This document shows, piece after piece, positions 3,517-60,435 of a stretch of DNA of 64,000 bases. The stretch covers positions 40-64,039 of the forward strand of contig JAUPTX010000002.1 in NCBI GenBank assembly GCA_030917865.1. The letters are read 5' to 3'. Numbering within the stretch: position 1 is the stretch's first letter; each line of letters starts with the position of its first letter. This DNA comes from Patescibacteria group bacterium. Its GTDB lineage: Bacteria; Patescibacteriota; Minisyncoccia; Phycocordibacterales; CSBR16-119. The notes below the pieces were generated by a model, which saw only the letters and a program-made list of their open reading frames with translations, did no database searches and was not told the origin of the DNA. A program made the translations under genes and the position numbers.

Positions 3517-4725
3517 CTATTTCTTTCCCAAAAACTTCTTCCCCCTCAAATCCTTATGATATTTAATAGAAAATCTATGGGCTTCAGCATTTACTAAAAC
3601 TATCGCGTCTTCTCTTCCTTTTATATAATCTTTTCCGCCCAAAATAGCTTTTGGTTTATGTCTTTCGTCTTTTACCACAGCCACAACTGGTATCACCGCG
3701 CCGATTTCATTTAACACTTTTTCAGCCGCGCGCTTTTGAGCCACAGACCCATCGACAACAATCATATTTGGATAGACCCATTCTGTATGAGCAAAACGCC
3801 GTAAAAGCATCTCACGAAGAGCGCCGACGTCGTTAGATTTATCAAATCCTTTTATTTTAAATTTTCGATACTCACTATTTTCTGGCACACTGTTTGTGAC
3901 AACGGTCATAACCCCCACCATCTCGCTTCCGCCAGTATGAGAAACATCGTATCCTTCAATACGAAAAGTTTTTTCTCTGTTTTCTATTCCCTCTTTTTTA
4001 ATTAAGGAAATATCTTTTATATGATCAAGTGCAAAAATTCTTTTCTTTAAAACATTTGCTTCTTCAAATCGTTCCTCTTTTGCGAGCTCCATCATTTCTT
4101 TTTCGAGTCTTTTTACAACATCTCTTTTTTTACCCTTAAAAAACAAAATCAGGTTCTCTATATTCTGTTCATAGGCTTTTATAAAATTAGAATCAGAAGA
4201 ATCTGGCGCAAGACCGATTTGTCTGTAAAATTCTTTTTGATCTTTCTTTATAGAATTTTCATCTTGAAACGGGAAAATCCTTCGGATTATCCTCATCGCT
4301 TCGCGTATAACAGAACCGTTTGGAAAAGGTCCAAATGTTGTTTTGAATTTCAGCCCCAGCTTTTCAACTTCTCTTTGGCGAACAGTCAAAACTTTTGGAA
4401 TATCTTCTTTAGTTATGCCGACGACATAAAAACTTTTATCATCTTTCTCTTTTGTGTTAGCTGCCGGCTGGTGTTTTTTAATTAGATTCGCTTCAAGTAT
4501 CAAAGCTTCGAGAACAGAGTCCGTCTCAAAAAATTTTACTTCGTCTGACTTTGTCACCATATCCAAAATAACAGGTCCGCGAGTATTAAATAAATCTTTT
4601 CCAAAATAACTTTTTACACGAGAGTGGAGTGAGGTTGCTTTTCCGATATACAAAATCTGCCCCTTTTCCAGGAACATATAAACACCCGGAGAATCTGGTA
4701 ATTTAGGCAAATCTTTACTTTTCAT
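3517..4725 (-). CDS. uvrC: excinuclease ABC subunit C (short form: GIY-YIG + UVR + RNase-H-like endonuclease domain; no C-terminal helix-hairpin-helix pair)
   Basis: GIY-YIG N-terminus (PGVYMFLEKGQILYIGKATSLHSRVKSYF), a UVR motif (EEANVLKKRIFALDHI), and a C-terminal block GYDVSHTGG...MIVVDGSVAQ...VVAVVKDERH typical of the UvrC 3'-incision domain. Only 402 aa. Confidence 0.8.
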   Translation of the reverse strand: MKSKDLPKLPDSPGVYMFLEKGQILYIGKATSLHSRVKSYFGKDLFNTRGPVILDMVTKSDEVKFFETDSVLEALILEANLIKKHQPAANTKEKDDKSFYVVGITKEDIPKVLTVRQREVEKLGLKFKTTFGPFPNGSVIREAMRIIRRIFPFQDENSIKKDQKEFYRQIGLAPDSSDSNFIKAYEQNIENLILFFKGKKRDVVKRLEKEMMELAKEERFEEANVLKKRIFALDHIKDISLIKKEGIENREKTFRIEGYDVSHTGGSEMVGVMTVVTNSVPENSEYRKFKIKGFDKSNDVGALREMLLRRFAHTEWVYPNMIVVDGSVAQKRAAEKVLNEIGAVIPVVAVVKDERHKPKAILGGKDYIKGREDAIVLVNAEAHRFSIKYHKDLRGKKFLGKK

Positions 4726-48168: not shown

Positions 48169-48197
48169 TTGACAAATTAATATAAAATATGTATACT
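48169..48197 (+). promoter_or_regulatory. sigma70-type promoter (-35 TTGACA, 17-nt spacer, -10 TATACT) for the 168-aa secreted ORF
   Basis: TTGACA at 48169-48174 and TATACT at 48192-48197, in the context tTTGACAAa. Confidence 0.45.
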
Positions 48198-48224
48198 TAC
48201 GAGCGAACCAACACAAACAAATAG

Positions 48225-48731
48225 ATGAAAAAACTGATCCTTCTCGCCATCTTTTTCCTGGGCATGATCGCCCAAGAAACATTCGGCCAAACCCGATACG
48301 GATGGGCAAACCCCATACCTGACAGTATGACGTGGAACTTGGACCAGTCGGTCAAAGAGGACTTTATCCTCTCCCCTCCAAGCGGCCAAGGTGACATACC
48401 CTTAGAATCGAGTATCTGGCAGAAACCAGAGAAAGACAAGATGACCGTAAAGATCGTGGCTGTAAGGCCCGCCGATCTCGGATTCGGACTTGGTTACGAC
48501 CACTCCGAATTCATCCTGGCCGCCAAAAAGCTCGGATACCTGCATTGCCCCGAATGGGTCCCAATCCAGGCGTACATGAGCTTTGGAAGGAGCAAGGGTC
48601 ACATCTTCTTCTACACAGGAGAAGCGAAGAAGTACTGGTGCTTTGGCCTATACGGCTACAAAAGCCAAGACCTTTGGAAAAGGACCCTGGACGGCAGACC
48701 TGATTCCATATGGATATTCGTACGAGAGTAA
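48225..48731 (+). CDS. hypothetical secreted protein (168 aa, N-terminal signal peptide), GC-rich cassette
   Basis: MKKLILLAIFFLGMIAQETFGQ signal peptide. The body is rich in aromatic residues and glycine. GC is roughly 50% by eye. A chance ORF of this length at that GC is improbable. Confidence 0.55.
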   Translation: MKKLILLAIFFLGMIAQETFGQTRYGWANPIPDSMTWNLDQSVKEDFILSPPSGQGDIPLESSIWQKPEKDKMTVKIVAVRPADLGFGLGYDHSEFILAAKKLGYLHCPEWVPIQAYMSFGRSKGHIFFYTGEAKKYWCFGLYGYKSQDLWKRTLDGRPDSIWIFVRE

Positions 48732-48744
48732 CAACTCTGGTACA

Positions 48745-48783
48745 AAAACCCCTGAAGCGAAAGCTTCAGGGGTTTCTTGTTTA
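48745..48783. terminator. bidirectional intrinsic terminator (AAAACCCCTGAAGC-GAAA-GCTTCAGGGGTTT + CTTGTTT)
   Basis: Perfect 13-bp stem between the convergent 168-aa ORF and pheT. Confidence 0.7.
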
Positions 48784-50595
48784 TCTTATTTCAAATCCTT
48801 TATCTTTTAATTTTGTGTAAATTTCTTCCATTATCGGAGCAACTTCTTCGTCTGTTAGAGTTTTTTCATGCGACTGAAATACAAGTCTGTAAGCATATGA
48901 AGTCTTGTAATCTTTTTGATACACATCGACAAGTCTCGGCTCTCTTGCTAAAAGATTCGCATCTTTTAAAACTTCTTCTATTTCTTTTTTATCAATCTCG
49001 TTTGGTATCAAAACAGCAATATCTCTTGTGATAAAAGGAAAAGAAGACCATTGTGTAAACTTTTTATTTTCTTTAATCTCATTTTCTGCAAATTTATAAG
49101 AAGAAAAATCTATGTTATTTTCTTTTACAAATTCGTCTAGTGACATTTCTGTCACACCTTTTTTATCCACCAAGGCAATATTTAAAACTTCGGAATCTTC
49201 TGTCGTAAAAACATTTCCGATTTCAAAAAGTTTTACATCATCAAGCCCCAAAACCCCAGCGTTTAATTTATTTATTTCATAAGACTCTTTTATTCCATCA
49301 GAAATATTTGTTCGGAGGTTTGATTTCCCTTTTGGACCACGAGCAACCTCGACCTTACCCTTTTTACCGAAAGTATATGTCATCGTCTCGCTATAGCCTT
49401 CATTTAACAGTTTCAAACGTACGGCAAAAATCTTTGCAAAAGTTTCGTTTATTTTTGGTTTTACAGAAATTTCTGGCATTACTGGCGCAACTTTTTCATA
49501 ACCAATAGTTCTACCAATTTCTTCTACTAAATCTTGCATCATATTTAGATCAAGTCTTTCTCCAGGAACAAAGATTTGGAAAATACCGTTTGTCTCACTG
49601 TAATCAAATCCAAGGGAAAGAACTGCTGTGGTTATCGTCGCGACGTCAAAGTCTACTCCCAAAACCCTGTTTATATCTTTCTGAGATACGACTATTTTTC
49701 TTTTTTCTTGCCACTTTTCTTTTGATTCATAAACGTCGACAATATCTTCAAAAGTTGCATCTGGAAACATTTCAAAAATCAAAGAAGAAAGTTCTGTCAT
49801 ACCGAGCGTCGCGTATTCTGGAGACAAATCATTTTCAAATCTTTTTGTAGAGTCTGTAAGTATGCCAAGTCTTCGTGCTGTCTTTCGCACAGATGAAGGC
49901 GCAAAGTTTGCAACTTCTATAACGATATCTTTTGTATTTTCATCAACTTCGGCTTTTGTTCCGCCTTTTACACCAGCAATAGCGAGAGCGCCTTCTTCAT
50001 CTGCAATAACTAAATCGGTTTCTAAAAGCTCTTTCTCTTCTCCGCCCAAGATTTGTATTTCTTCACCCATCTGAGCATTTCTAATATAGATTGTTTTATT
50101 GTCGGCAATTTTATCATAATCAAAAGCATGCGTTGGCTGACCAACGTTAAACATTACGATATTTGTCGCGTCGACAATATTGTTTATACTTCGCTGCCCA
50201 ATTGATTCTAAGTGCGTTACCATCCACTCTTTAGAAGGTCCGACTTTTACCCCGCGAATAATTCGCGCAGAGTATCTTCGGCAAGCACCTCCTTCTATGT
50301 TTATTTTTAATTCTGTTGGAGCGGATTCAGGAATTTTATATGAGAGTGTCGGATCAACAAAAGGAATATTTAAAAGCCCAGAAAGTTCTTTTGCCACACC
50401 TCTGTGTGAAAGCAAATCGTGCGCTCTGTTTGGCAAAATATTTATATCAAAAATAGTATCTTCTTTTCCATCTTTACCAATAAAAGTTTCTACACCTTCA
50501 ACTTCAGTTAAATGGTATGTGAAAACATCTGCCAATTTTTCAGCAGTCGGAATTTCTGGTATATACCACTTTAGCCAGTTGTAAGATATTTTCAT
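48781..50595 (-). CDS. pheT: phenylalanyl-tRNA synthetase beta subunit (short form, 604 aa)
   Basis: MKISYNWLKWYIP N-terminus, B3/B4 and B5 regions, and a C-terminal catalytic-like domain. Confidence 0.85.
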   Translation of the reverse strand: MKISYNWLKWYIPEIPTAEKLADVFTYHLTEVEGVETFIGKDGKEDTIFDINILPNRAHDLLSHRGVAKELSGLLNIPFVDPTLSYKIPESAPTELKINIEGGACRRYSARIIRGVKVGPSKEWMVTHLESIGQRSINNIVDATNIVMFNVGQPTHAFDYDKIADNKTIYIRNAQMGEEIQILGGEEKELLETDLVIADEEGALAIAGVKGGTKAEVDENTKDIVIEVANFAPSSVRKTARRLGILTDSTKRFENDLSPEYATLGMTELSSLIFEMFPDATFEDIVDVYESKEKWQEKRKIVVSQKDINRVLGVDFDVATITTAVLSLGFDYSETNGIFQIFVPGERLDLNMMQDLVEEIGRTIGYEKVAPVMPEISVKPKINETFAKIFAVRLKLLNEGYSETMTYTFGKKGKVEVARGPKGKSNLRTNISDGIKESYEINKLNAGVLGLDDVKLFEIGNVFTTEDSEVLNIALVDKKGVTEMSLDEFVKENNIDFSSYKFAENEIKENKKFTQWSSFPFITRDIAVLIPNEIDKKEIEEVLKDANLLAREPRLVDVYQKDYKTSYAYRLVFQSHEKTLTDEEVAPIMEEIYTKLKDKGFEIR

Positions 50596-52067: not shown

Positions 52068-55000
52068 CTATTTTACTTCTGAATCTGTTATCACATAGGG
52101 CTTACATTTTTGTAATCTTATTGTAGCACTACCCTCGTTATTGTTTTGATTTGCATCTGATTGATCGAGATAATGCAGGACGGCAATATTAGTCCTATTT
52201 CCACAAACCTTTGGTGAATTAGGAACTTTCATTGTTATAAATATATGCGTTTGCTGATTAGGAAAAAGTGTTGGAATGTAAAACATATGAACATTGTTGT
52301 TGTATGCGTTCGTGTTAGGTGTTTGATGAGAGTGATATATCAATCCTGGTGGAATTATTTCTTTAACTTGAACATTTGTAGCAGTATTATCTCCTAAATT
52401 TTTTACATCTATCCTCCAAGTTATATATCTATCAAATAAAGAGAGTGATGAATCAACCAACTCTTTTGCAACCCTTATATCTACTTTTCCATCAGTATTA
52501 ACTGGTGGAGTGTCTCCAACCAAAGCAACACCGAAATCTAAGTTTTCTACTGTTTCTCCGTCTTCTAGCGTGACTGTATACATATGGTTGTAATTTATAA
52601 ATGGATCAGTACTTATTCCCGGCTGTGTCACCGATTGATACAAATTTTCACCTATTAAACCGACGTAATACTCTCCGTCTGGAAGGTTTGTGAATTCGTA
52701 TCTACCGAGGTTTGGAATGTCTTCCGTAGTTGTGGTTTGGATTGGCATGTTGTTACCAGCTTGGAAAAGACCCACCGGAATACCTGCAAGGCGTAGCTCG
52801 GTCGATTGTTGAGAGCCGTTTTGGTTTTGGTCTTGATAAATATATCCATGAATAGAAGAAGTTCCTGCTTTTTTTAAACTTACACCATCAATATAAAACA
52901 TAGAGCTTACAAAAATATTACTCGTGTCAGAAATAAATTCGGGATCAAAAGCAATATAATTATACTCTATTCCATTATCTGGAATAGAAAAGTCTAAAAA
53001 GTATTCTTGCCATAAACCTATATTAGGATGTGAATATGAGTTAAGGTTTACAGGTACAGAAAATAACAAATCTGTCTGATTTGACACAAAAGATTCTTGA
53101 AAAGAAGGACTTGATAAAGGCTCTGCTGAAATATAAATTTTTTGATTGACATTAGATATCCCACCACCTCTTAGATATACACCGCGCCAAACCAATCGAT
53201 AACTACCAGGAAGAATGGGCTCTAAAGTCTTTGTTTGAATACTTTCAACATAAGTAGGCAAGCCAATATAATTACCAGGAACAAAAGAATTGGTCCCGCC
53301 AATATATCTGTTATTTGGAATACCATTATATGTTTCTTGAGGCCCAGAATTAGTCCAAGGAAAATCAAAATTTAAATCTCTAGTATATATATCAGTAGAT
53401 GGTCTAAAGTTACACCAACCAAGAAAATCACTTGGGCATAAAAAAGATAACTGACCTGCTCCATTTCCAGCACCCGGCAAATCTCCGATTTCAAAATTTC
53501 CATTACAAATATATTCATCGGGGTCATTAATACTTTCACAAGATGCTGCAGTCTTTATTAAAGCAGTAAATGAAAATCTGTTTGTATTTGAATTCTTGTT
53601 TGTATACCTAAAAACTCTAGTAGAAGTATCGATGGTTGGAATAATGTTTACAGACACAGAACCTGATGAATTTGATTGAATAGATCCAGTACAATTTGAT
53701 CCTGAGAAATACTGTATTACATCTCCAGGATCTGAAGCAACAACCTCAAAAATGTTAATCTTAAGCTGATTAACAGACCCCCCGGGATTAATATCATTAT
53801 CTAGTAAATTAACACACACTGGCTCTGTTCCATTAAACTGAATAAAATCATTCGTTGCTACCGGACTCGGCACTTCACACCCAGCCAATCCCTCCACCAT
53901 ATATCCCAAATGACACAAAACTTCTAGTTCATGTTCGTGGATATCTCTTTCTGTATTTGTTCCAATTGATGGATGCATTACATAAGTCTGTCCTGGGGCG
54001 CGATTCATGTCAAAGTGCGAAAGAGACGAGCCCTGTTGCCAGCTTGTTGGACTGTAAACAGGGCGAACGCCATCCGGAGCAGCGTTTAAAATATTTTTAA
54101 CACCACGGTAAACAACCTGGTTTGTTACAAACCAAGGAGAAGGGGCTCCGACTGGGACGTTTAATAGGTTTGTGACAGCGGTGATAAATCTGTTTTGAAG
54201 ACTTTCATCTTTGTGTGTGTAGTAGTCAAATGTTCCATGATTATAGGAAATATTGGTTTCATTTATAACCGAAGGCAAAAGACCTCTTAAACCAAGTGCA
54301 TGCATCATCTCATGCCACATAACGGTATAGAAGTCATAAGTATTCGCGTTAAGACTTGAATCAACGCTCCAGTTAATACCATTAAAATTTATTATTATGA
54401 AAGCGTCAAAAGACCCTTGTGCTGGGGTTGGGTTTTGTCTTGAGATGATATGTTTGTGAAGAGAGCCGTTGTCAGGGTTAGCAGAGTAATAGCCCAAATA
54501 TGAAGACGCCCCAGCTAGAGCTCCTGGTGGTAAGGGCTGGTCACTTCTTGTAAAAAGAATATCTGAGGTTACGGTAGTCGTATCTATCATTAGAATCTCT
54601 GACATATCTTCTAGAACCTGACAAGCTTCTTCTCTTCTACCATCTCCATATGTAGGGTCATCAAAACCAACGTTAGTGTTTAGTGCCACATCTTCAAAGT
54701 AGGCTTTGAAGTATCCCGTGACAGATGTATTTGCTCTACAGTTATATACTCCTGGATTACTTGTATCTTCATCGTATGCAACTACTTTTTTTGTTTTTAG
54801 GGAATCCAAGAAAGATTGTTTTCTTGGTTCTTCTTTTTTCATGAAAGCGTTTTCTTTTACCGGGTAACCCCAGGCGTCACGAATTGGTCCAAAGTCAACA
54901 TACTCTAATCCATATTCTTGTTTTAGGATAGCTCTTGCTTTTTCTTCGTCAAAAGGAAGTATCGGTAGGTCAAAGTTTGCCTCTTTTTTGTTTACTGGAA

Positions 55001-55217
55001 GCTTTGAGTATTGATATTGGAAATTAAATACTCCTGGAAATTCTTTTGAAGGAGAGATGTTATAGATGTTTTCACTTATTTGCCCAATCAAAGAAGCTTG
55101 GGCCGAATTTTCTATCTGAAGAATACTTGGAATAACAAGCCCTTGCATAGTAAAAAAAGTAAGAAACAAAATTCCCACAGAAATAATAAAATTTATTGAA
55201 GGTTTATATTTTTTCAT
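52068..55217 (-). CDS. large secreted/surface protein (1049 aa): signal peptide, HExxH zinc-metalloprotease-like region, SdrD-B/CnaB-type domain and C-terminal DUF11 repeat domain
   Basis: N-terminal hydrophobic signal. YTVMWHEMMHALGL (HExxH). A second HEHELE motif. GYIYQDQNQNGSQQSTE...GRYEFTNLPDGEYYV (SdrD B-like). VDIRVAKE...WRIDVKNLGDNTATNVQVKEIIPPGL (DUF11-like). Confidence 0.7.
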   Translation of the reverse strand: MKKYKPSINFIISVGILFLTFFTMQGLVIPSILQIENSAQASLIGQISENIYNISPSKEFPGVFNFQYQYSKLPVNKKEANFDLPILPFDEEKARAILKQEYGLEYVDFGPIRDAWGYPVKENAFMKKEEPRKQSFLDSLKTKKVVAYDEDTSNPGVYNCRANTSVTGYFKAYFEDVALNTNVGFDDPTYGDGRREEACQVLEDMSEILMIDTTTVTSDILFTRSDQPLPPGALAGASSYLGYYSANPDNGSLHKHIISRQNPTPAQGSFDAFIIINFNGINWSVDSSLNANTYDFYTVMWHEMMHALGLRGLLPSVINETNISYNHGTFDYYTHKDESLQNRFITAVTNLLNVPVGAPSPWFVTNQVVYRGVKNILNAAPDGVRPVYSPTSWQQGSSLSHFDMNRAPGQTYVMHPSIGTNTERDIHEHELEVLCHLGYMVEGLAGCEVPSPVATNDFIQFNGTEPVCVNLLDNDINPGGSVNQLKINIFEVVASDPGDVIQYFSGSNCTGSIQSNSSGSVSVNIIPTIDTSTRVFRYTNKNSNTNRFSFTALIKTAASCESINDPDEYICNGNFEIGDLPGAGNGAGQLSFLCPSDFLGWCNFRPSTDIYTRDLNFDFPWTNSGPQETYNGIPNNRYIGGTNSFVPGNYIGLPTYVESIQTKTLEPILPGSYRLVWRGVYLRGGGISNVNQKIYISAEPLSSPSFQESFVSNQTDLLFSVPVNLNSYSHPNIGLWQEYFLDFSIPDNGIEYNYIAFDPEFISDTSNIFVSSMFYIDGVSLKKAGTSSIHGYIYQDQNQNGSQQSTELRLAGIPVGLFQAGNNMPIQTTTTEDIPNLGRYEFTNLPDGEYYVGLIGENLYQSVTQPGISTDPFINYNHMYTVTLEDGETVENLDFGVALVGDTPPVNTDGKVDIRVAKELVDSSLSLFDRYITWRIDVKNLGDNTATNVQVKEIIPPGLIYHSHQTPNTNAYNNNVHMFYIPTLFPNQQTHIFITMKVPNSPKVCGNRTNIAVLHYLDQSDANQNNNEGSATIRLQKCKPYVITDSEVK

Positions 55218-55269: not shown

Positions 55270-56313
55270 TTAAAAATTATCAAAATTTTTCCTTAAGTAA
55301 TTTTTTCTATACTGATTTCCATGTTGTTGACGTCTATCTCTTCTAACCAAAAATCTGTTCATTTTAGAAGGCAGTGCGTCGCACAAACGACAAAAGTTAG
55401 AACAATACCCTTTATACTTTTCTAAACAATCATCACAAGACAAATGCAGAACATGACAGTTTTCATTTTTACAATGCCTATGTTCATCTGTTTTGTTTTT
55501 ATCACACAAGTGACACACTGAGATTATTTCATCCCCCACCTTCTCGCCGAGTCTTTCGTCAAAAACGAAATTTTTACCCTTGAATTTATTTGGCAAACCT
55601 TTTTCTTTTACCTGATGAGCGTAATCTATCACTCCACCTTTTATGTGTTTTACATTTTTAAATCCCTTATGCTTCATCCAAGCGCTTGCCTTCTCGCACC
55701 TGATTCCTCCAGTACAATAAAGCAAAACCTCTTCGTCTTTTTTGTCAGAAAACATATTTTCTACTTTTGCGAGCTGTTCACGGAAAGTATCCACTGGCAT
55801 TATCTTTGCATTTTCAAAATGTCCAATTTCAGCTTCGTAAAAATTCCTCATATCTATCACAGTCGCGCCTTTGTCTATCATCTCATTCACCTCTTCGGCG
55901 CTCGCATACGCGCCAGTATTAGCTGGATCAAAAGTAGAGTCATCTAGTCCATCTGCGACAATTTTTGGGCGGACTTTTACAATCAACTTTAGGAAAGATG
56001 ATTTACCTTTTTCTTCTACAGCCACTTTATACGGCACTCCGACAAACTCCGGGATGCTTTGAATAAATTTATCAAAAGCTTCAAAGTTATGTTCTGGAAC
56101 ATTCATCTGCGCGTTTATCCCCTCGTGCGCCACGTAGATACGACCCAAACATCCAAACTTTTCAAAATTAACATACAAAAAATCTCGCATCGTTTTTGGA
56201 TCTGCGATTTTCACATAGCGATAAAAAGATATTGTCTTTCGGCGAAAATCTTCTTTTTCTATCTGTGCCAAAAGCTGCTCTTTTGACTTTCTGTTGTAGA
56301 GTTTTTTAATCAT
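55270..56313 (-). CDS. trhO: rhodanese-domain protein of the TrhO/YceA (UPF0176) family (tRNA U34 hydroxylase-like)
   Basis: Rhodanese active-site loop LYCTGGIRCEKASAWM and a Cys-rich C-terminal tail (CHLCDKNKTDEHRHCKNENCHVLHLSCDDC). Confidence 0.7.
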   Translation of the reverse strand: MIKKLYNRKSKEQLLAQIEKEDFRRKTISFYRYVKIADPKTMRDFLYVNFEKFGCLGRIYVAHEGINAQMNVPEHNFEAFDKFIQSIPEFVGVPYKVAVEEKGKSSFLKLIVKVRPKIVADGLDDSTFDPANTGAYASAEEVNEMIDKGATVIDMRNFYEAEIGHFENAKIMPVDTFREQLAKVENMFSDKKDEEVLLYCTGGIRCEKASAWMKHKGFKNVKHIKGGVIDYAHQVKEKGLPNKFKGKNFVFDERLGEKVGDEIISVCHLCDKNKTDEHRHCKNENCHVLHLSCDDCLEKYKGYCSNFCRLCDALPSKMNRFLVRRDRRQQHGNQYRKNYLRKNFDNF

Positions 56314-56356
56314 AAGATATTTAGATATTAAAACTTTTTTAGGTTTTTAGGAAGGG

Positions 56357-56385
56357 TTGACAAAAATACAATAAAGATGTAATTT
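56357..56385 (+). promoter_or_regulatory. sigma70-type promoter (-35 TTGACA, 17-nt spacer, -10 TAATTT) for the 155-aa GC-rich ORF
   Basis: TTGACA at 56357-56362, in the context gGTTGACAAa. Confidence 0.35.
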
Positions 56386-56419
56386 AACGTTTGAAAGAAC
56401 AAACCTTAAACTCAATAGA

Positions 56420-56887
56420 ATGAGAACAATTGAAACACAAGTGCCAAACTGGCAAGGAGTACCAGCTGTTGGAATGGGGAAACTCATCTTCAACGATGTC
56501 ACGTACATATACTGTGTACTAGATACACGATTGTTAATGAAGCTCGCCACCATCTGCAAAGACGGCATACTGGCGGTAAGTATGGACTACCCAGGCGAAT
56601 ATCGCGAGCTAGCACTGATTCACGAACTCATTGAGTTCTCATCTTGGCAAGAAAAAGACCGAAAAAGAGTCTGCTCCTGCCAAAGTGCACTTCAACAAGA
56701 ATTAAGTATGGCCCAAAATCGTGGAATCGATATGGGTGAATACATAAAGCTTAGGCTTGAATTCTTTGAGGGTGTTGTGAGTTATTACGAAGGAAGGACA
56801 GGTAGCGGAGAAGCCACGGAAGAGGAGTGGGAGATCTTTGAGCACGTTGCACAAAGCCGAGACCATCTGAAAAGCCTGGTCCAATAA
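56420..56887 (+). CDS. hypothetical protein (155 aa), GC-rich cassette
   Basis: Complete ORF followed by a perfect terminator. No recognised family. GC roughly 47% by eye. Confidence 0.5.
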   Translation: MRTIETQVPNWQGVPAVGMGKLIFNDVTYIYCVLDTRLLMKLATICKDGILAVSMDYPGEYRELALIHELIEFSSWQEKDRKRVCSCQSALQQELSMAQNRGIDMGEYIKLRLEFFEGVVSYYEGRTGSGEATEEEWEIFEHVAQSRDHLKSLVQ

Positions 56888-56906
56888 CCAAGGACCATTC
56901 CACCAA

Positions 56907-56950
56907 AGCCCTGCCGGGCATTAACCGGCAGGGCTTCTTCTTTTAAAAAA
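56907..56950 (+). terminator. intrinsic terminator (AGCCCTGCCGG-GCATTAA-CCGGCAGGGCT + TCTTCTTTT)
   Basis: Perfect 11-bp stem and T-tail. Confidence 0.75.
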
Positions 56951-56983
56951 AATATTGTAATATGGCCAAAAACGCAGCACAAA

Positions 56984-57334
56984 ATGTTCCACAAACTTCA
57001 CCTCATACACCCAGGAGAACTTCATGGTGAAAACCACGCAGGAAATTATCATTACAACTTCTTCGCACAGAACAGAGATCAAATACCGAAAGGTATAGTT
57101 ATAGACCGCGTATTCCCCGGATTAAGCCTTATCTTTTTTGGAGATCGCGTGGAGAGAAACGGCAACATCTACGCCCCTGGACTTTATCGCGCCAAAGGAC
57201 TTATCTACTGTTCCTTCGCTGACCCAAGCGGATGGGAGGAATATTGGGTCTGTCTAGATGAAGAAGGAGCACCCGTGGTGAAGTACGGAGGACAGGATCT
57301 TTCCATGTACTACCGATACGTGGTGAAGAAGTGA
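56984..57334 (+). CDS. hypothetical protein (116 aa), GC-rich cassette
   Basis: Complete ORF (MFHKLHLIHPGELHGENHAGNYHYNFF...) with its own terminator. Rich in Tyr, Gly and His. No family recognised. Confidence 0.45.
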   Translation: MFHKLHLIHPGELHGENHAGNYHYNFFAQNRDQIPKGIVIDRVFPGLSLIFFGDRVERNGNIYAPGLYRAKGLIYCSFADPSGWEEYWVCLDEEGAPVVKYGGQDLSMYYRYVVKK

Positions 57335-57348
57335 CGAAGATGTCACGA

Positions 57349-57389
57349 AGCCCCGCAGCCGAAGGCTGCGGGGCTTCTTCTTTTTTATA
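57349..57389. terminator. bidirectional intrinsic terminator (GCCCCGCAGCC-GAA-GGCTGCGGGGC + TTCTTCTTTTTT), shared with the convergent helicase gene
   Basis: Perfect 11-bp stem. The tail is near-identical to the 56907 terminator (GGGCTTCTTCTTTT). Confidence 0.75.
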
Positions 57390-60300
57390 TCCTATTTTTT
57401 ATCTCTTCTACCAGCTCACAATATTTTTCATTTCCCTCGCCCATATCTTTTGGATCACAGGGTGTATCCCAAAATTTTAAGTTCAATATTTCATCCGACA
57501 CACGGATTATCTCTGACTTTAGATTTTCCACCTCCTCATCTGTTGGGGCAAATGTGTGTTTTGTAAATTTACCTTTTTCGTCTGGCTCAACGAATTCCAA
57601 AGATCCTTCGTCCATCACAAACTTTCCATCAGCATAAAGCGAAAGAAGAAGTTTATAGAAAACTATTTGCCTATAGTATGCACCATCAGAATCTTTCGTC
57701 TCTCCGCGCACGAATTTTTCTGATTTTGGCTTTCCTGTTTTATAGTCCACCACTCGCACGTGCCTCTCGCTTCCGTCTATAAACTCCAGCTTATCCAACT
57801 TACCAGTTAAACGAATCTCTGAATTTATATAAACCCCATTTATAGGAAGCTCAACCAAGGCATGTTTGTGTAATTTGCCCTTATTTTCTTCATACCACGC
57901 GTCGAGAGTTTTATATCCCTTGTCGAGCAAATCTTCTCTTTCGCTATCTCGAAGAGTTTCGCCAGAAAGTCTTTCTTCAAATTTTTGAAATAAAAATTCT
58001 TTGCCAGGTTCTTCGTATTTCAAGCTTTCAAAAAAAGCCTGAAGAACAGCATGGATCACGGTTCCATAAATCTGACTTCTGTTTTGTGGTTCTGGTAGCC
58101 GGACCAAATTGCGGTAGAAATAACGCCAAGGAGATTTTAGATAATTGTTTAAAGCTGTCACCGAAAGACCTTGAGACAAAAACTTTTCTCTGACGAAATC
58201 TTTGTATTTTTCTTTGTAATCTTCTTTTGTTGGCTTTACTATTTTTTCTTTAAATAAAATTTCTTTTTCTTTAGAAAAATTTTGCACAAAATTATCAGGA
58301 GAAACTATCTCGATAAAATCTGTATCTATCTCGCCGACAAACTGACTCGGCACACGCTCTCGCCCATCAGAAGAAAAAGATCCGTATGAAATATGTATTT
58401 CTTTTTTCGCACGAGTAAGCGCAACATAAAAAAGTCTTCTTTCTTCGTTGTCATTTTCTCCCGAAGAAGATTCGTCAAAATAATCAAAATCATTTTCTTT
58501 TTTATCTTTTATCAAAGAATAAACCGAAGGAAGAAGTTTTAATATTTCTCTTTTAGATTTGTTGCCCCAGTGCCCGTCGTACGCACCAACGATATAAACA
58601 TTTTCAAACTCAAGACCTTTTGATTTATGTGCAGTCATAAGTCTAACCGCGTCGCCTAAAGGTTTCGCTTTTCTTTTAATAGAAAGTCCGTGTTTTTCTA
58701 TGATGTCTAAATATTCACAAAAATCAGAAAGTCTAGCTGAAGGATTTGTTTTTTCTAAATCCCTTGCTTCTTCAAAAAAAGTGTTGATTACTTCGACTTT
58801 TTCAGGGTTTTCTGAAAGAGCTGTTGTTAAAAGTCCTGACTGCCTTAATATCTTTTCTAAACACTCTACAAGTTCTTCGTTTTTAGACGAGCTCACCCAA
58901 CCGGATAAATTCGCATAAGTTTCTAAAAATGATTCTTTGTTTTCTAGAGGCATTTTATCTAGCATTTTTTCCTTATTTGAAATTATGTCGTATAAGTCAA
59001 ATTTTTTCTTATCTTTTGCACTACGAACAACTCGAATTAAATCGATCGGAGAAATTTTGAACAAATCAAGATGAAGCATTTCAGCCAAAACGTCGTCGTC
59101 GCCAAAATTATTTACCGCTTTGATTATTTTAATAAACTTTCTGATATAAGAGTCACGTAAAATATCCTGATCAGATTCTATAACATAAGGGATCCCAAAA
59201 CGTGCCAACATATCCGCCACAGGAAACGCGTCACCATTATTTCTGTATAAAACAGCACAAGAAGACGCACCATTTCCCTCTTTTATTTTTTCTTGTATTG
59301 AAGAAGCGACGAAATAATATTCACTGGCATCGTCTGGAAAAGTGTAGAAATGTATTTTCTTTTCTTTTTCTTTTATATTTGCAGAAAGCTTTTCTCGTCC
59401 CGCCAAAAGACTGTGTGCCGAGTCTAAAATAGTCTGGGTTGAACGATAATTTTCTGTAAGAGTTATAAGTTTAGCTTCTGGATAAAGATGCTTAAAGTAG
59501 AAAAAGTTTTCTAAAGAAGCACCTTGGAATTTAAAGATTGATTGCTTTTTGTCTCCCACAACAAACAAGTTTGGGCTCTCGTGGAAATTCGCCAAGAGCT
59601 CAAGTATTTTATTTTGAGCATTGTTTGTATCTTGATGCTCGTCAACCAAAATATATTGATGATTTTCTTGGAGACGTAAAAGCAAATCAGAGTCTTCTTT
59701 TAGCATCTTCAAAACCTCCATTATCATATCGTTGTAGTCGTAATATTTTTTCTCTACGAGTTTTTCTTCATATTTTCTATAAACCAAAGCAAGTTCTCTA
59801 TTTTTCTCGATTCGTTTTTTCAAATCTTGATATTCATTTTTAATCTTGCCTTTATAGCGACCTTTTTCGTGATAAAGATCAGAAATTTCTTCAAAATCTC
59901 TTTGCGCCAAGAAAACAATATTATCAAAATCTTCAGGCAAAACTCCCTCTCTTTTTAAATCACTTATCGCAGAATTTATGGCTTTTGTGTAATACAAAGT
60001 ATCGCCAAAAGGTTTAAGCAAGCTTAATTTAGTCTCAATTATAATTTCTTCAATTAGAGAAATTTGAATGCTTTCTGTGATATTTTTAGCGCCAATAATT
60101 CTCGGGAAATTTTCTGGATTGTCGCGAATCACATCGTTTGCAAATCCGTGAAAAGTTTTAATCACAACAGAATACGCCGCAGATCCGATAAAATCTGTTA
60201 ATCTTTTACGCATATTAGAAACTCCAGACTCGGTGAAAGTCAGAGCCAAGATGTTTTCTGGGGCGGTGTCTGTTTGTCTTAGAATATTTGCAATACGAAG

Positions 60301-60435
60301 AGACAGGATTTGAGTCTTCCCTGTTCCTGGACCAGCAACAACCATAACTGGGCCTTCTATGGTGTCCACAGCTTCTTTTTGAGCCTTATTTAGCCTTTCA
60401 TAGCTTTCCAAAAACGCTTTTTCATCTTTTTTCAT
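57385..60435 (-). CDS. UvrD/PcrA-family superfamily-1 helicase fused to a C-terminal RecB-like PD-(D/E)xK nuclease domain (AddA-like)
   Basis: Walker A AGPGTGKTQILSLRIANIL and SF1 helicase motifs. C-terminal nuclease motifs (VVDYKTGK and YRQIVFYKLL, the QhxxY motif). No AddB-like partner is adjacent. Confidence 0.8.
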   Translation of the reverse strand: MKKDEKAFLESYERLNKAQKEAVDTIEGPVMVVAGPGTGKTQILSLRIANILRQTDTAPENILALTFTESGVSNMRKRLTDFIGSAAYSVVIKTFHGFANDVIRDNPENFPRIIGAKNITESIQISLIEEIIIETKLSLLKPFGDTLYYTKAINSAISDLKREGVLPEDFDNIVFLAQRDFEEISDLYHEKGRYKGKIKNEYQDLKKRIEKNRELALVYRKYEEKLVEKKYYDYNDMIMEVLKMLKEDSDLLLRLQENHQYILVDEHQDTNNAQNKILELLANFHESPNLFVVGDKKQSIFKFQGASLENFFYFKHLYPEAKLITLTENYRSTQTILDSAHSLLAGREKLSANIKEKEKKIHFYTFPDDASEYYFVASSIQEKIKEGNGASSCAVLYRNNGDAFPVADMLARFGIPYVIESDQDILRDSYIRKFIKIIKAVNNFGDDDVLAEMLHLDLFKISPIDLIRVVRSAKDKKKFDLYDIISNKEKMLDKMPLENKESFLETYANLSGWVSSSKNEELVECLEKILRQSGLLTTALSENPEKVEVINTFFEEARDLEKTNPSARLSDFCEYLDIIEKHGLSIKRKAKPLGDAVRLMTAHKSKGLEFENVYIVGAYDGHWGNKSKREILKLLPSVYSLIKDKKENDFDYFDESSSGENDNEERRLFYVALTRAKKEIHISYGSFSSDGRERVPSQFVGEIDTDFIEIVSPDNFVQNFSKEKEILFKEKIVKPTKEDYKEKYKDFVREKFLSQGLSVTALNNYLKSPWRYFYRNLVRLPEPQNRSQIYGTVIHAVLQAFFESLKYEEPGKEFLFQKFEERLSGETLRDSEREDLLDKGYKTLDAWYEENKGKLHKHALVELPINGVYINSEIRLTGKLDKLEFIDGSERHVRVVDYKTGKPKSEKFVRGETKDSDGAYYRQIVFYKLLLSLYADGKFVMDEGSLEFVEPDEKGKFTKHTFAPTDEEVENLKSEIIRVSDEILNLKFWDTPCDPKDMGEGNEKYCELVEEIKNRI

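Follow-up and report, generated by a model that had tools for sequence, protein, structure and literature searches.

In chromosomal hotspots of horizontal gene transfer (HGT), and in flexible genomic islands of the "replacement" type, the same pair of core genes encloses different cargo in different strains, homologous recombination takes place in the flanks, base composition is deviant, and the cargo consists mostly of genes of unknown function. Such loci were reportedly described by Oliveira et al. in 2017 and by Rodriguez-Valera and colleagues. Phage morons, as described by Hendrix and colleagues, carry their own promoter and terminator, have a deviant guanine-plus-cytosine (GC) content, are variably present, share hotspots, and lie between two conserved genes (PMC2920897). 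Here, we examine a locus with features of both in a 64,000-nucleotide stretch of DNA, called the window throughout, from a Patescibacteria group bacterium (GenBank assembly GCA_030917865.1, contig JAUPTX010000002.1), in which two small open reading frames (ORFs), A and B, occupy an intergenic slot between trhO and a helicase-nuclease gene. We consider it fairly probable that this slot is an old accessory-gene hotspot between the helicase-nuclease gene and trhO in one Patescibacteria lineage, filled with moron-like single-gene units. Patescibacteria have tiny genomes in which gene gain and loss are little understood, and the locus is a compact example of rapid accessory turnover between housekeeping genes.

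RESULTS

A two-position slot whose content differs between close relatives

The slot of the window consists of the elements listed here, and the extents and lengths (in amino acids [aa]) of its two ORFs agree with those assigned by an earlier, sequence-only reading of the window.

56314..56364, no strand: conserved intergenic block ending in TTTTTAGGAAGGGTTGACAA, comprising the trhO 5' region and the P1 -35; left border of position 1
56357..56385, plus strand: P1, promoter-like site (TTGACA at 56357-56362, 17-nucleotide [nt] spacer, TAATTT at 56380-56385)
56420..56887, plus strand: ORF A, 155 aa, predicted cytoplasmic
56906..56944, plus strand: T1, terminator-like hairpin followed by CTTCTTTT; right border of position 1
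56953..56963, plus strand: P2, -10-like element TATTGTAATAT upstream of B, without a good -35; conserved in 6 loci
56984..57334, plus strand: ORF B, 116 aa, predicted cytoplasmic
57347..57384, plus strand: T2, terminator-like hairpin followed by TTCTTTT; directly adjacent to the stop codon of the helicase gene, which is convergent

Across about a dozen related Patescibacteria contigs, the content of the slot was as follows.

Window: A and B
L007: A and a distant homolog of B (121 aa)
Contig of P0004: A and an uncharacterized 175-aa ORF
L001, L002, and L008: A alone
L003, L004, and L005: B alone
L006: an unrelated 77-aa ORF (X77) and B
L012: an unrelated 98-aa ORF (X98) and B
L096 to L098: an 85-aa membrane-peptide ORF (X85) and B
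L009 to L011: P1, an orphan terminator, and then B; no gene in position 1

Of the two positions of the slot, the first holds A, one of four unrelated small genes (X77, X98, X85, or X56), or nothing, and the second a B-family gene or nothing. The sequence-only reading had raised the possibility that relatives are polymorphic at the trhO-helicase junction, and indeed they are, with states of A plus B, A alone, B alone, other genes plus B, and an empty socket plus B. Since relatives carry A, B, other small genes, or nothing at this place, the locus looks like a long-standing turnover hotspot rather than a recent foreign insertion.

The same distribution bears on the idea that A and B function jointly as a two-gene system, for example, a toxin-antitoxin or antiphage defense pair, which their small size, adjacency, fast evolution, and position in a variable locus, all typical of defense islands, might suggest. 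However, A occurs without B in L001, L002, and L008, and B without A in L003, L009, L006, L012, and L096; a terminator-like hairpin follows each gene, so that one stands between them; selection on both is purifying, not diversifying, overall; and no PADLOC model (at an E value of ≤1) and no Pfam family matched either protein. We regard a joint system as extremely unlikely and view A and B as fast-evolving cytoplasmic proteins, each dispensable and functioning without the other.

In the trhO and helicase trees, each sister pair differs in slot state: the window (A and B) is paired with L003 (B), L006 (X77 and B) with L012 (X98 and B), and L001 (A) with L096 (X85 and B). The tree of A agrees with those of the flanks, whereas the tree of B conflicts with them. 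For example, the flanks of L009 have diverged most (77% identity), yet the L009 B protein is 64% identical to that of the window, and L006 and L012 have flanks that are 84 to 93% identical, whereas their B proteins show merely 47% identity. The noncoding P2 and T2 sequences track the B tree. It is chiefly from this conflict that we infer that whole units may have been exchanged, and not merely lost.

Promoter-like and terminator-like elements border position 1

In the intergenic alignment, conservation spans the trhO start to GGAAGGGTTGACAA, ends just after the -35, and resumes at the T1 hairpin. Columns are invariant through GGGTTGACA in 9 loci, and conservation collapses past the -35 hexamer whatever gene comes next; on the other side of position 1, it covers the T1 hairpin, its T-tract, and the -10-like TAATAT ahead of B. 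Because conservation stops at the -35 and resumes at T1, position 1 can be described as a socket bounded by regulatory elements.

The TTGACA-17-TAATTT arrangement that the sequence-only reading had placed ahead of A is present, and its -35 block is invariant in 9 relatives. In relatives, TTGACA is accompanied by a -10-like hexamer at 16 to 17 nt; the conserved P1 block was also found in L013. A consensus promoter scanner did not list P1 because its -10 matches just 3 of 6 positions. The P2 region, with TAATAT or TAGTAT and a flanking A-rich leader, is kept in 6 loci, and P2 may drive B independently; otherwise, B would depend on read-through of T1.

T1 has a stem (56906-56936) of 12 perfect pairs, 9 of them GC pairs, with a 7-nt loop, and begins 18 nt past the stop codon of A; T2 has a stem (57347-57377) of 14 perfect pairs, 11 of them GC pairs, with a 3-nt loop, and begins 12 nt past the stop codon of B. 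One perfect hairpin per gene had been claimed, and this much stands, but the 11-bp stem lengths given for them do not. Both hairpins have the sequence features of intrinsic terminators (a GC-rich stem, a short loop, and a 3' T-tract directly after the stop codon), and the terminator activity of T1 and T2, like the promoter activity of P1 and P2, is a prediction from sequence. T1 is retained after A, X77, X98, and X85, as well as in the empty socket of L009, hairpins orthologous to T2 sit after B in all relatives, and a few compensatory stem changes are seen across the slot hairpins of relatives.

Several junctions may preserve traces of turnover. In L003, the P1 -35 is joined almost directly to the B leader, which we read as the clean removal of A together with T1; in L009, P1 is followed directly by T1 and then by P2 and B; and in L012, a truncated half-hairpin that looks like a junction scar lies beside a complete T1. 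The half-hairpin of L012, the bounding of the cargo exactly by the -35 hexamer and the hairpin, the confinement of the hairpin family to the slot, and a Y1_Tnp gene in the equivalent junction of the more distant locus L021 could all be taken to mean that the hairpins, possibly together with the -35 block, are sites of dedicated, site-specific exchange of single-gene cassettes, as opposed to general homologous recombination, mediated by a hairpin-directed recombinase or transposase, for example, one of the Y1/IS200-RAYT type acting in trans (RAYT, repetitive extragenic palindromic [REP]-associated tyrosine transposase). However, in no window-clade locus do the Pfam lists include a recombinase gene within ~6 kb of the slot, none of the slot-family hairpins is present in the L021 slot, the hairpins carry T-tracts and sit at exact ORF ends like ordinary terminators, and their design is common in unrelated GC-rich phages, with two copies alone in the 64 kb of the window. 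Dedicated exchange thus strikes us as quite unlikely.

The two slot hairpins belong to one family

T1 and T2 end in an identical 14-nt tail, GGGCTTCTTCTTTT (56931-56944 and 57371-57384, respectively), and across the clade both share the stem AGCCC(C/T)GC...GC(G/A)GGGCT and a CTTTTTCTTTT-like tail. The window contains two copies of the motif GCCCYGC-N6-16-GCRGGGC, against none in 100 shuffles, and no further copy was found in the rest of the window or in the flanks of 92 fetched loci. Under strict criteria, T1 and T2 are two of the seven strong terminator-like hairpins in the 64 kb, and the stems of the other five are unrelated to theirs. The T1 stem of L096 differs from the others.

These near-identical tails had been read as the mark of a duplicated or common-origin module. 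The hairpins do belong to a single family that is restricted to the slot in all fetched sequence, but the duplication is not borne out: T1 and T2 are as similar within a genome (0.727) as between genomes (0.726), and 460 of 720 permutations did as well, so there is no sign of recent duplication of T1 and T2 or of gene conversion between them. Gene conversion between the two was accordingly rejected, the permutation test being flat. The same hairpin design also occurs in 29 viral contigs, all GC rich (median, 62%) and unrelated, which makes the identical 14-nt tail weak evidence for duplication. A shared origin of the two hairpins is plausible, though unproven, and the identity of their tails is a peculiarity of the window.

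Alternatively, T1 and T2 may resemble each other by convergence on a near-optimal terminator at a place where transcription converges on the helicase gene. The occurrence of the GCCCCGCCG...CGGCGGGGCTTTT design in those 29 viral contigs, the lack of any excess of within-genome similarity, and the different T1 stem of L096 fit this possibility, whereas the unrelated stems of the window's other five strong hairpins and the absence of the motif from all fetched flanking sequence do not. We hold convergence to be a credible but doubtful explanation; it concerns the origin of the hairpins alone and is compatible with the hotspot explanation.

The GC excess of the slot is shared by relatives

ORFs A and B have GC contents of 45.3% and 46.7%, respectively, against a window average of 36.6%; they are GC rich, as had been noted, but the 47 to 48% cited by the sequence-only reading is too high. 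The island formed by A and B (44.8%) ranks in the top 0.4% of 1050-bp windows and holds the maximum of the 64 kb. GC content at third codon positions (GC3) is 0.46 for A (rank 3 of 45 genes) and 0.49 for B (rank 2 of 45), with a background of 0.30 (standard deviation, 0.08). In every relative, the slot lies 2 to 12 GC points above its own locus, and the excess is at least 7 points except in L007 (44.4 versus 42.4%), L008 (43.3 versus 40.6%), and L096 (40.7 versus 37.0%); in L007 and L008, whose contigs are short, a large share of the locus average comes from the slot itself. The GC3 of B in relatives is 0.45 to 0.63, versus 0.20 to 0.37 for the flanks.

Part of the excess of C at third positions is a strand effect, as plus-strand background genes are richer in C-ending pyrimidine codons than minus-strand genes. 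This third-codon asymmetry extends over the whole window, with a fraction of C among NNY codons of 0.51 in plus-strand genes and 0.33 in minus-strand genes. Strand bias was nevertheless rejected as the cause of the high GC3, since GC at fourfold-degenerate sites is 0.39 for A and B together versus 0.24 for the plus-strand background (and 0.22 for the minus-strand background). A structured RNA or known RNA family was likewise rejected: the only Rfam matches in the window are tRNAs elsewhere, and the RNA-structure z-scores of -4.6 and -4.3 for the full transcripts fall to -1.7 and -1.1 when the terminators are excluded, so the strong scores are due to the terminators and the coding regions are not unusually structured.

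One alternative is that a single foreign, GC-rich module, with A and B and their duplicated terminators, was recently inserted by horizontal transfer at the trhO-helicase junction of the window genome. In its favor, the GC content of the window peaks at the island, T1 and T2 share their 14-nt tail, and empty junctions occur in more distant relatives. However, relatives separated by saturated synonymous divergence hold A and/or B in the same place and with the same GC excess, the A tree fits the flank trees, A and B occur independently, and T1 and T2 are no more similar within than between genomes. Synteny already largely refutes this explanation, which we judge highly unlikely. The suggestion of one inserted or duplicated module does not survive, in that A and B are separate units that are found apart and only the A tree fits the flanks, and a recent insertion in the window genome is contradicted by the saturated synonymous divergence between carriers. 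Two other expectations of the sequence-only reading did hold: the slot composition of relatives is not host-like, and both ORFs are conserved at the amino acid level.

Synonymous sites are saturated between most carriers, so the GC excess of a gene imported just once would be expected to have faded. Its persistence at third codon positions is best accounted for by ongoing exchange with a shared gene pool of higher GC content, by GC-biased gene conversion at a recombination hotspot, or by a combination of the two.

ORFs A and B encode two uncharacterized protein families

ORFs A and B are real genes. Codon-level comparison among carriers gave ratios of nonsynonymous to synonymous substitution rates (dN/dS) of 0.12 to 0.19 for A and 0.20 to 0.32 for B, indicating purifying selection, and the protein rate of both is several-fold above that of the flanks (dN/dS, 0.03 to 0.06 for trhO and 0.03 to 0.11 for the helicase gene); synonymous divergence is saturated between most carriers of A and B. 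Neither translation contains a signal peptide or a hydrophobic segment. The two proteins show no relatedness to each other, and neither matches Pfam, NCBIfam, PHROGs, or PADLOC at an E value of ≤1, in agreement with the sequence-only reading, which had recognized no family for them and no kinship between them.

Protein A is identical to NCBI MDQ5901401.1, an entry from a metagenome-assembled genome (MAG) recorded as [quoted passage not shown] and has six close homologs with 52 to 100% identity. A profile search of 1.84 billion representative proteins expanded the family to 121 clusters (50% identity) at an E value of ≤1e-3. Most members are about 150 aa long, and a few are fused to an S-adenosylmethionine (SAM) methyltransferase domain or to helix-turn-helix (HTH) repeats; neither kind of fusion pointed consistently to a function. 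Pfam matched none of 57 family members, and a profile search of the family against PDB sequences found nothing. The AlphaFold model (predicted local distance difference test [pLDDT], 82; predicted template modeling score [pTM], 0.76) combines a beta domain at the N terminus with a four-helix part at the C terminus and had no Foldseek match in PDB or BFVD at an E value of <0.1. Near-invariant positions are P9, Y31, S54, P58, H68, E69, C87, E94, Y108, R112, F116, and L150.

Among species-representative genomes, the A family occurs in two, labeled Saccharibacteria and Paceibacterota. Its distant members are stand-alone genes in unrelated Patescibacteria neighborhoods, which include csoR and copA (read from translations), a nitroreductase gene with PemK, PNPOx with HIT, and a periplasmic binding protein gene. 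A link to copper homeostasis, prompted by the csoR- and copA-like neighbors of one homolog, was rejected, as it is absent in three other contexts. An HEPN-like nuclease reading (R62-x5-H68 on a helical bundle) was also rejected, the arginine being insufficiently conserved and no profile or structure matching. Our best guess, drawn from the model and the conserved residues, is that A might be a small metal-binding or catalytic protein that acts through His-Glu, Cys, and Glu on a helical bundle.

The B family is small and lineage restricted, with nine homologs of 37 to 100% identity and one distant homolog found by BLASTP, and all members with a readable context lie in the slot (P0015, on a 1-kb contig, is the exception). 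Conserved motifs are GLIYCSFADPSGWE and DLSMYYRYVV, and a profile search of the family against PDB sequences gave no match. The exact B protein is recorded in JGI and Logan gene calls and not in NCBI, and B may be unannotated in the GenBank MAG record. In L003 (6001-6069), and also in P0008 and P0009, a gene call makes B 139 aa long by starting it 23 codons farther upstream, within the conserved promoter block. According to the alignment, the conserved start is the methionine of MFEKLH, so the long form is probably a miscall.

The slot lies between housekeeping genes

Two conserved core genes, syntenic across related loci, flank the slot.

55270..56313, minus strand: left flank, TrhO-type gene (trhO), 347 aa; UPF0176_N, Rhodanese, and Rhodanese_C domains
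57385..60435, minus strand: right flank, gene for a 1016-aa UvrD-type helicase with a fused PD-(D/E)XK nuclease domain; transcribed toward the slot genes

The helicase-nuclease protein comprises UvrD-helicase, UvrD_C, and PDDEXK_1 domains, and the Pfam matches of both flanks exceed curated cutoffs. The domain architectures are those of TrhO (UPF0176/YceA) and of a UvrD-type helicase-nuclease, so the names trhO and helicase that had been given to the flanks from sequence were correct. Homolog contigs share a wider neighborhood of pheS/pheT, trhO, the slot, the helicase-nuclease gene, a ~78-aa ORF, a peptidase gene (M3), and sodA.

These surroundings bear on whether the slot units are phage-derived morons or a prophage remnant. 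Their own promoter-like and terminator-like elements, deviant GC, and position in a hotspot with alternative cargo do fit the moron description (PMC2920897). However, the flanks are housekeeping genes (pheST, trhO, helicase-nuclease, peptidase M3, and sodA), no PHROG matched, A has no fold match in BFVD, no relatives of A, B, or X98 were found among 2.9 million viral contigs, and the viral contigs that bear the hairpin motif are all GC rich and unrelated. Phage origin is therefore very unlikely in our estimation.

The interval between pheS and trhO is variable as well. In the window (52068-55217) and in L012 (1252-4386), it holds a minus-strand gene for a surface-type protein of ~1045 aa, which in L012 is of the SdrD_B/CLIPPER type; in L001 (2752-4773), L003 (2924-4882), L006 (741-2702), and L096 (1356-3299), it holds a plus-strand ORF of 647 to 673 aa with zero Pfam matches; and in L007 and L009, it holds no gene. 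Beside trhO, L096 carries a short palindromic insertion (4498-4555) resembling a miniature inverted-repeat transposable element (MITE), CCAGATAGTGAT…ATCACTATCTGG.

The junction in more distant loci

A trhO-anchored scan of metagenome contigs recovered more distant loci where trhO, once more, has a UvrD/PD-(D/E)XK helicase gene immediately upstream. Their junctions fall into three kinds.

L015, L016, L019, L023, and L031: 26 to 41 bp, empty
L025 and L029: about 130 bp, with a ~30-aa membrane-peptide ORF
Other loci: 0.8 to 1.8 kb of unrelated cargo

In L013 to L031, trhO is 70 to 83% identical to that of the window, whereas the adjacent helicase is just 28 to 32% identical over its full length; helicase identity within the window clade is 77 to 96%. 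L013 is intermediate, with the window-clade P1 block, a 56-aa ORF, and a hairpin of the same family, yet a divergent helicase, a mixture that could reflect helicase replacement, paralogy, or a chimeric contig. If the distant helicases are orthologous, the empty state and the varied cargo make the junction a recurrent entry point.

The ~30-aa peptide of L025 and L029 is hydrophobic and conserved (…LGWLDNGP…), with a TATAAT-like element upstream. The 1788-bp junction of L021 contains a 220-aa IS200-like Y1 transposase ORF (PF01797; E = 2.8e-7) and a 188-aa membrane-protein ORF, both on the strand opposite to that of the window-clade slot genes. In L013, a ~115-bp palindromic, MITE-like insertion with inverted repeats CCCGTTAGAAGC…GTCACGGTCAC / GTGACCGTG…GCTTCTAACGGG lies between the trhO start and the promoter block.

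A second unit of the same build

At 48170-48785, the window contains another unit of this build, with TTGACA-17-TATACT, an ORF, and a hairpin, between two minus-strand core genes. The ORF (48225..48731, plus strand) encodes 168 aa with a signal-peptide-like N terminus and has a GC content of 50.7% and a GC3 of 0.64, the highest of the 45 genes. Its hairpin (48746-48775) is a perfect 13-bp stem with a sequence unlike those of the slot hairpins; Pfam gave no match to the ORF, and the viral search gave just a weak 23-residue match. This unit at 48.2 to 48.8 kb suggests that the pattern is a habit of the genome and not a single oddity.

DISCUSSION

Our observations lead us to propose that each position of the slot would form an independent transcription unit with a single gene, on the opposite strand from the core genes on either side, in the order -35 block (P1), variable -10 and leader, gene 1, T1, P2, gene 2 (B family), and T2. 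The strong hairpins most likely stop each unit and would block antisense transcription into the convergent helicase gene. Turnover of such units would involve both deletion and replacement. Deletion probably removed A from L003, the closest relative of the window, and B from L001 and L008, and probably reduced position 1 of L009 to a promoter-terminator shell. Replacement, most plausibly by homologous recombination through the conserved borders, would have brought A, X77, X98, X85, or X56 into position 1 and, at position 2, would have given rise to the B alleles that conflict with the flank phylogeny.

Several points weigh against this hotspot explanation. Recombination was inferred from about ten metagenomic contigs, and the conflict of the B tree could instead reflect faster evolution in the lineage of L006 and L012. 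Contigs from metagenomes may also be chimeras, a concern for L013, and the distant helicases are so divergent (28 to 32% identity) that the "empty junctions" may flank a paralog and need not be strictly orthologous sites. P1, P2, T1, and T2 are consensus-level predictions, with a weak -10 in P1 and no -35 in P2. The functional guess for A comes from its conserved residues, with no recurrent neighborhood to add to them, and B could not be modeled (pLDDT, 42).

A bolder extension of the hotspot explanation is that Patescibacteria chromosomes contain "sockets" with a fixed -35 and hairpin, into which single-gene cassettes from a GC-richer mobile pool are swapped, the hairpin being the recombination junction, possibly for a hairpin-directed enzyme acting in trans, and the A family being a widespread cargo with a new fold. 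We think this unlikely, but if true, such sockets would be a chromosomal, nonphage counterpart of morons and integron cassettes in ultrasmall bacteria.

By itself, the locus reveals no new mechanism. What makes it notable is that regulatory elements serve as its borders and that its composition signal has not decayed, so that it offers a concrete site at which to study recombination and GC-biased conversion in uncultivated bacteria. It also flags two uncharacterized protein families, one of which, that of A, has a confident model with no detectable solved or viral structural relative.

Among known systems, toxin-antitoxin and defense pairs are marked by co-occurrence, cotranscription, and a match to a known model, whereas A and B occur apart, have a terminator-like hairpin between them, and match no PADLOC model or Pfam family. 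REP/RAYT and IS200/IS605 systems resemble the slot in having GC-rich hairpins at gene ends, and a Y1 transposase gene does occur in the junction of one relative. Unlike the slot hairpin, of which there are 2 copies in 64 kb, REP sequences have many copies per genome; many dispersed copies, as expected of REPs or MITEs, were not seen in the 64 kb or in the flanks of 92 loci, and the window clade has no Y1 gene close to the slot. Integron cassettes, too, are single-gene units that end in a hairpin-forming sequence and stand in tandem at one site with variable content. They differ in being usually promoterless, with an imperfect attC and an IntI integrase next to attI and Pc, whereas the slot units have promoter-like elements and perfect GC stems with T-tracts, and no integrase families were found among the slot neighbors within ~6 kb in any locus.

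The slot units share most of the usual features of phage morons. At the sequence level, each slot ORF is preceded by a promoter-like or -10-like element and followed by a perfect hairpin with a T-tract, GC content is unlike that of the backbone (45 to 47% versus 36.6%) with an excess in every relative, and the units are variably present among relatives, with different units at the same position. As to recurrence against different genomic backgrounds, the two families differ: the A family occurs in unrelated contexts in other Patescibacteria, and the B family was found in the slot alone. In contrast to morons, the slot units have stayed at their locus through long divergence, their backbone is a bacterial chromosome with housekeeping genes on both sides, and no viral relatives of their cargo were found.

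In the way it works, the slot resembles chromosomal HGT hotspots and flexible islands, and we would place it at the small end of this class. It differs from them in its scale of one or two genes of 56 to 175 aa, in its setting in a reduced Patescibacteria genome, and in its borders, which are a -35 hexamer and a terminator hairpin rather than the core genes themselves.

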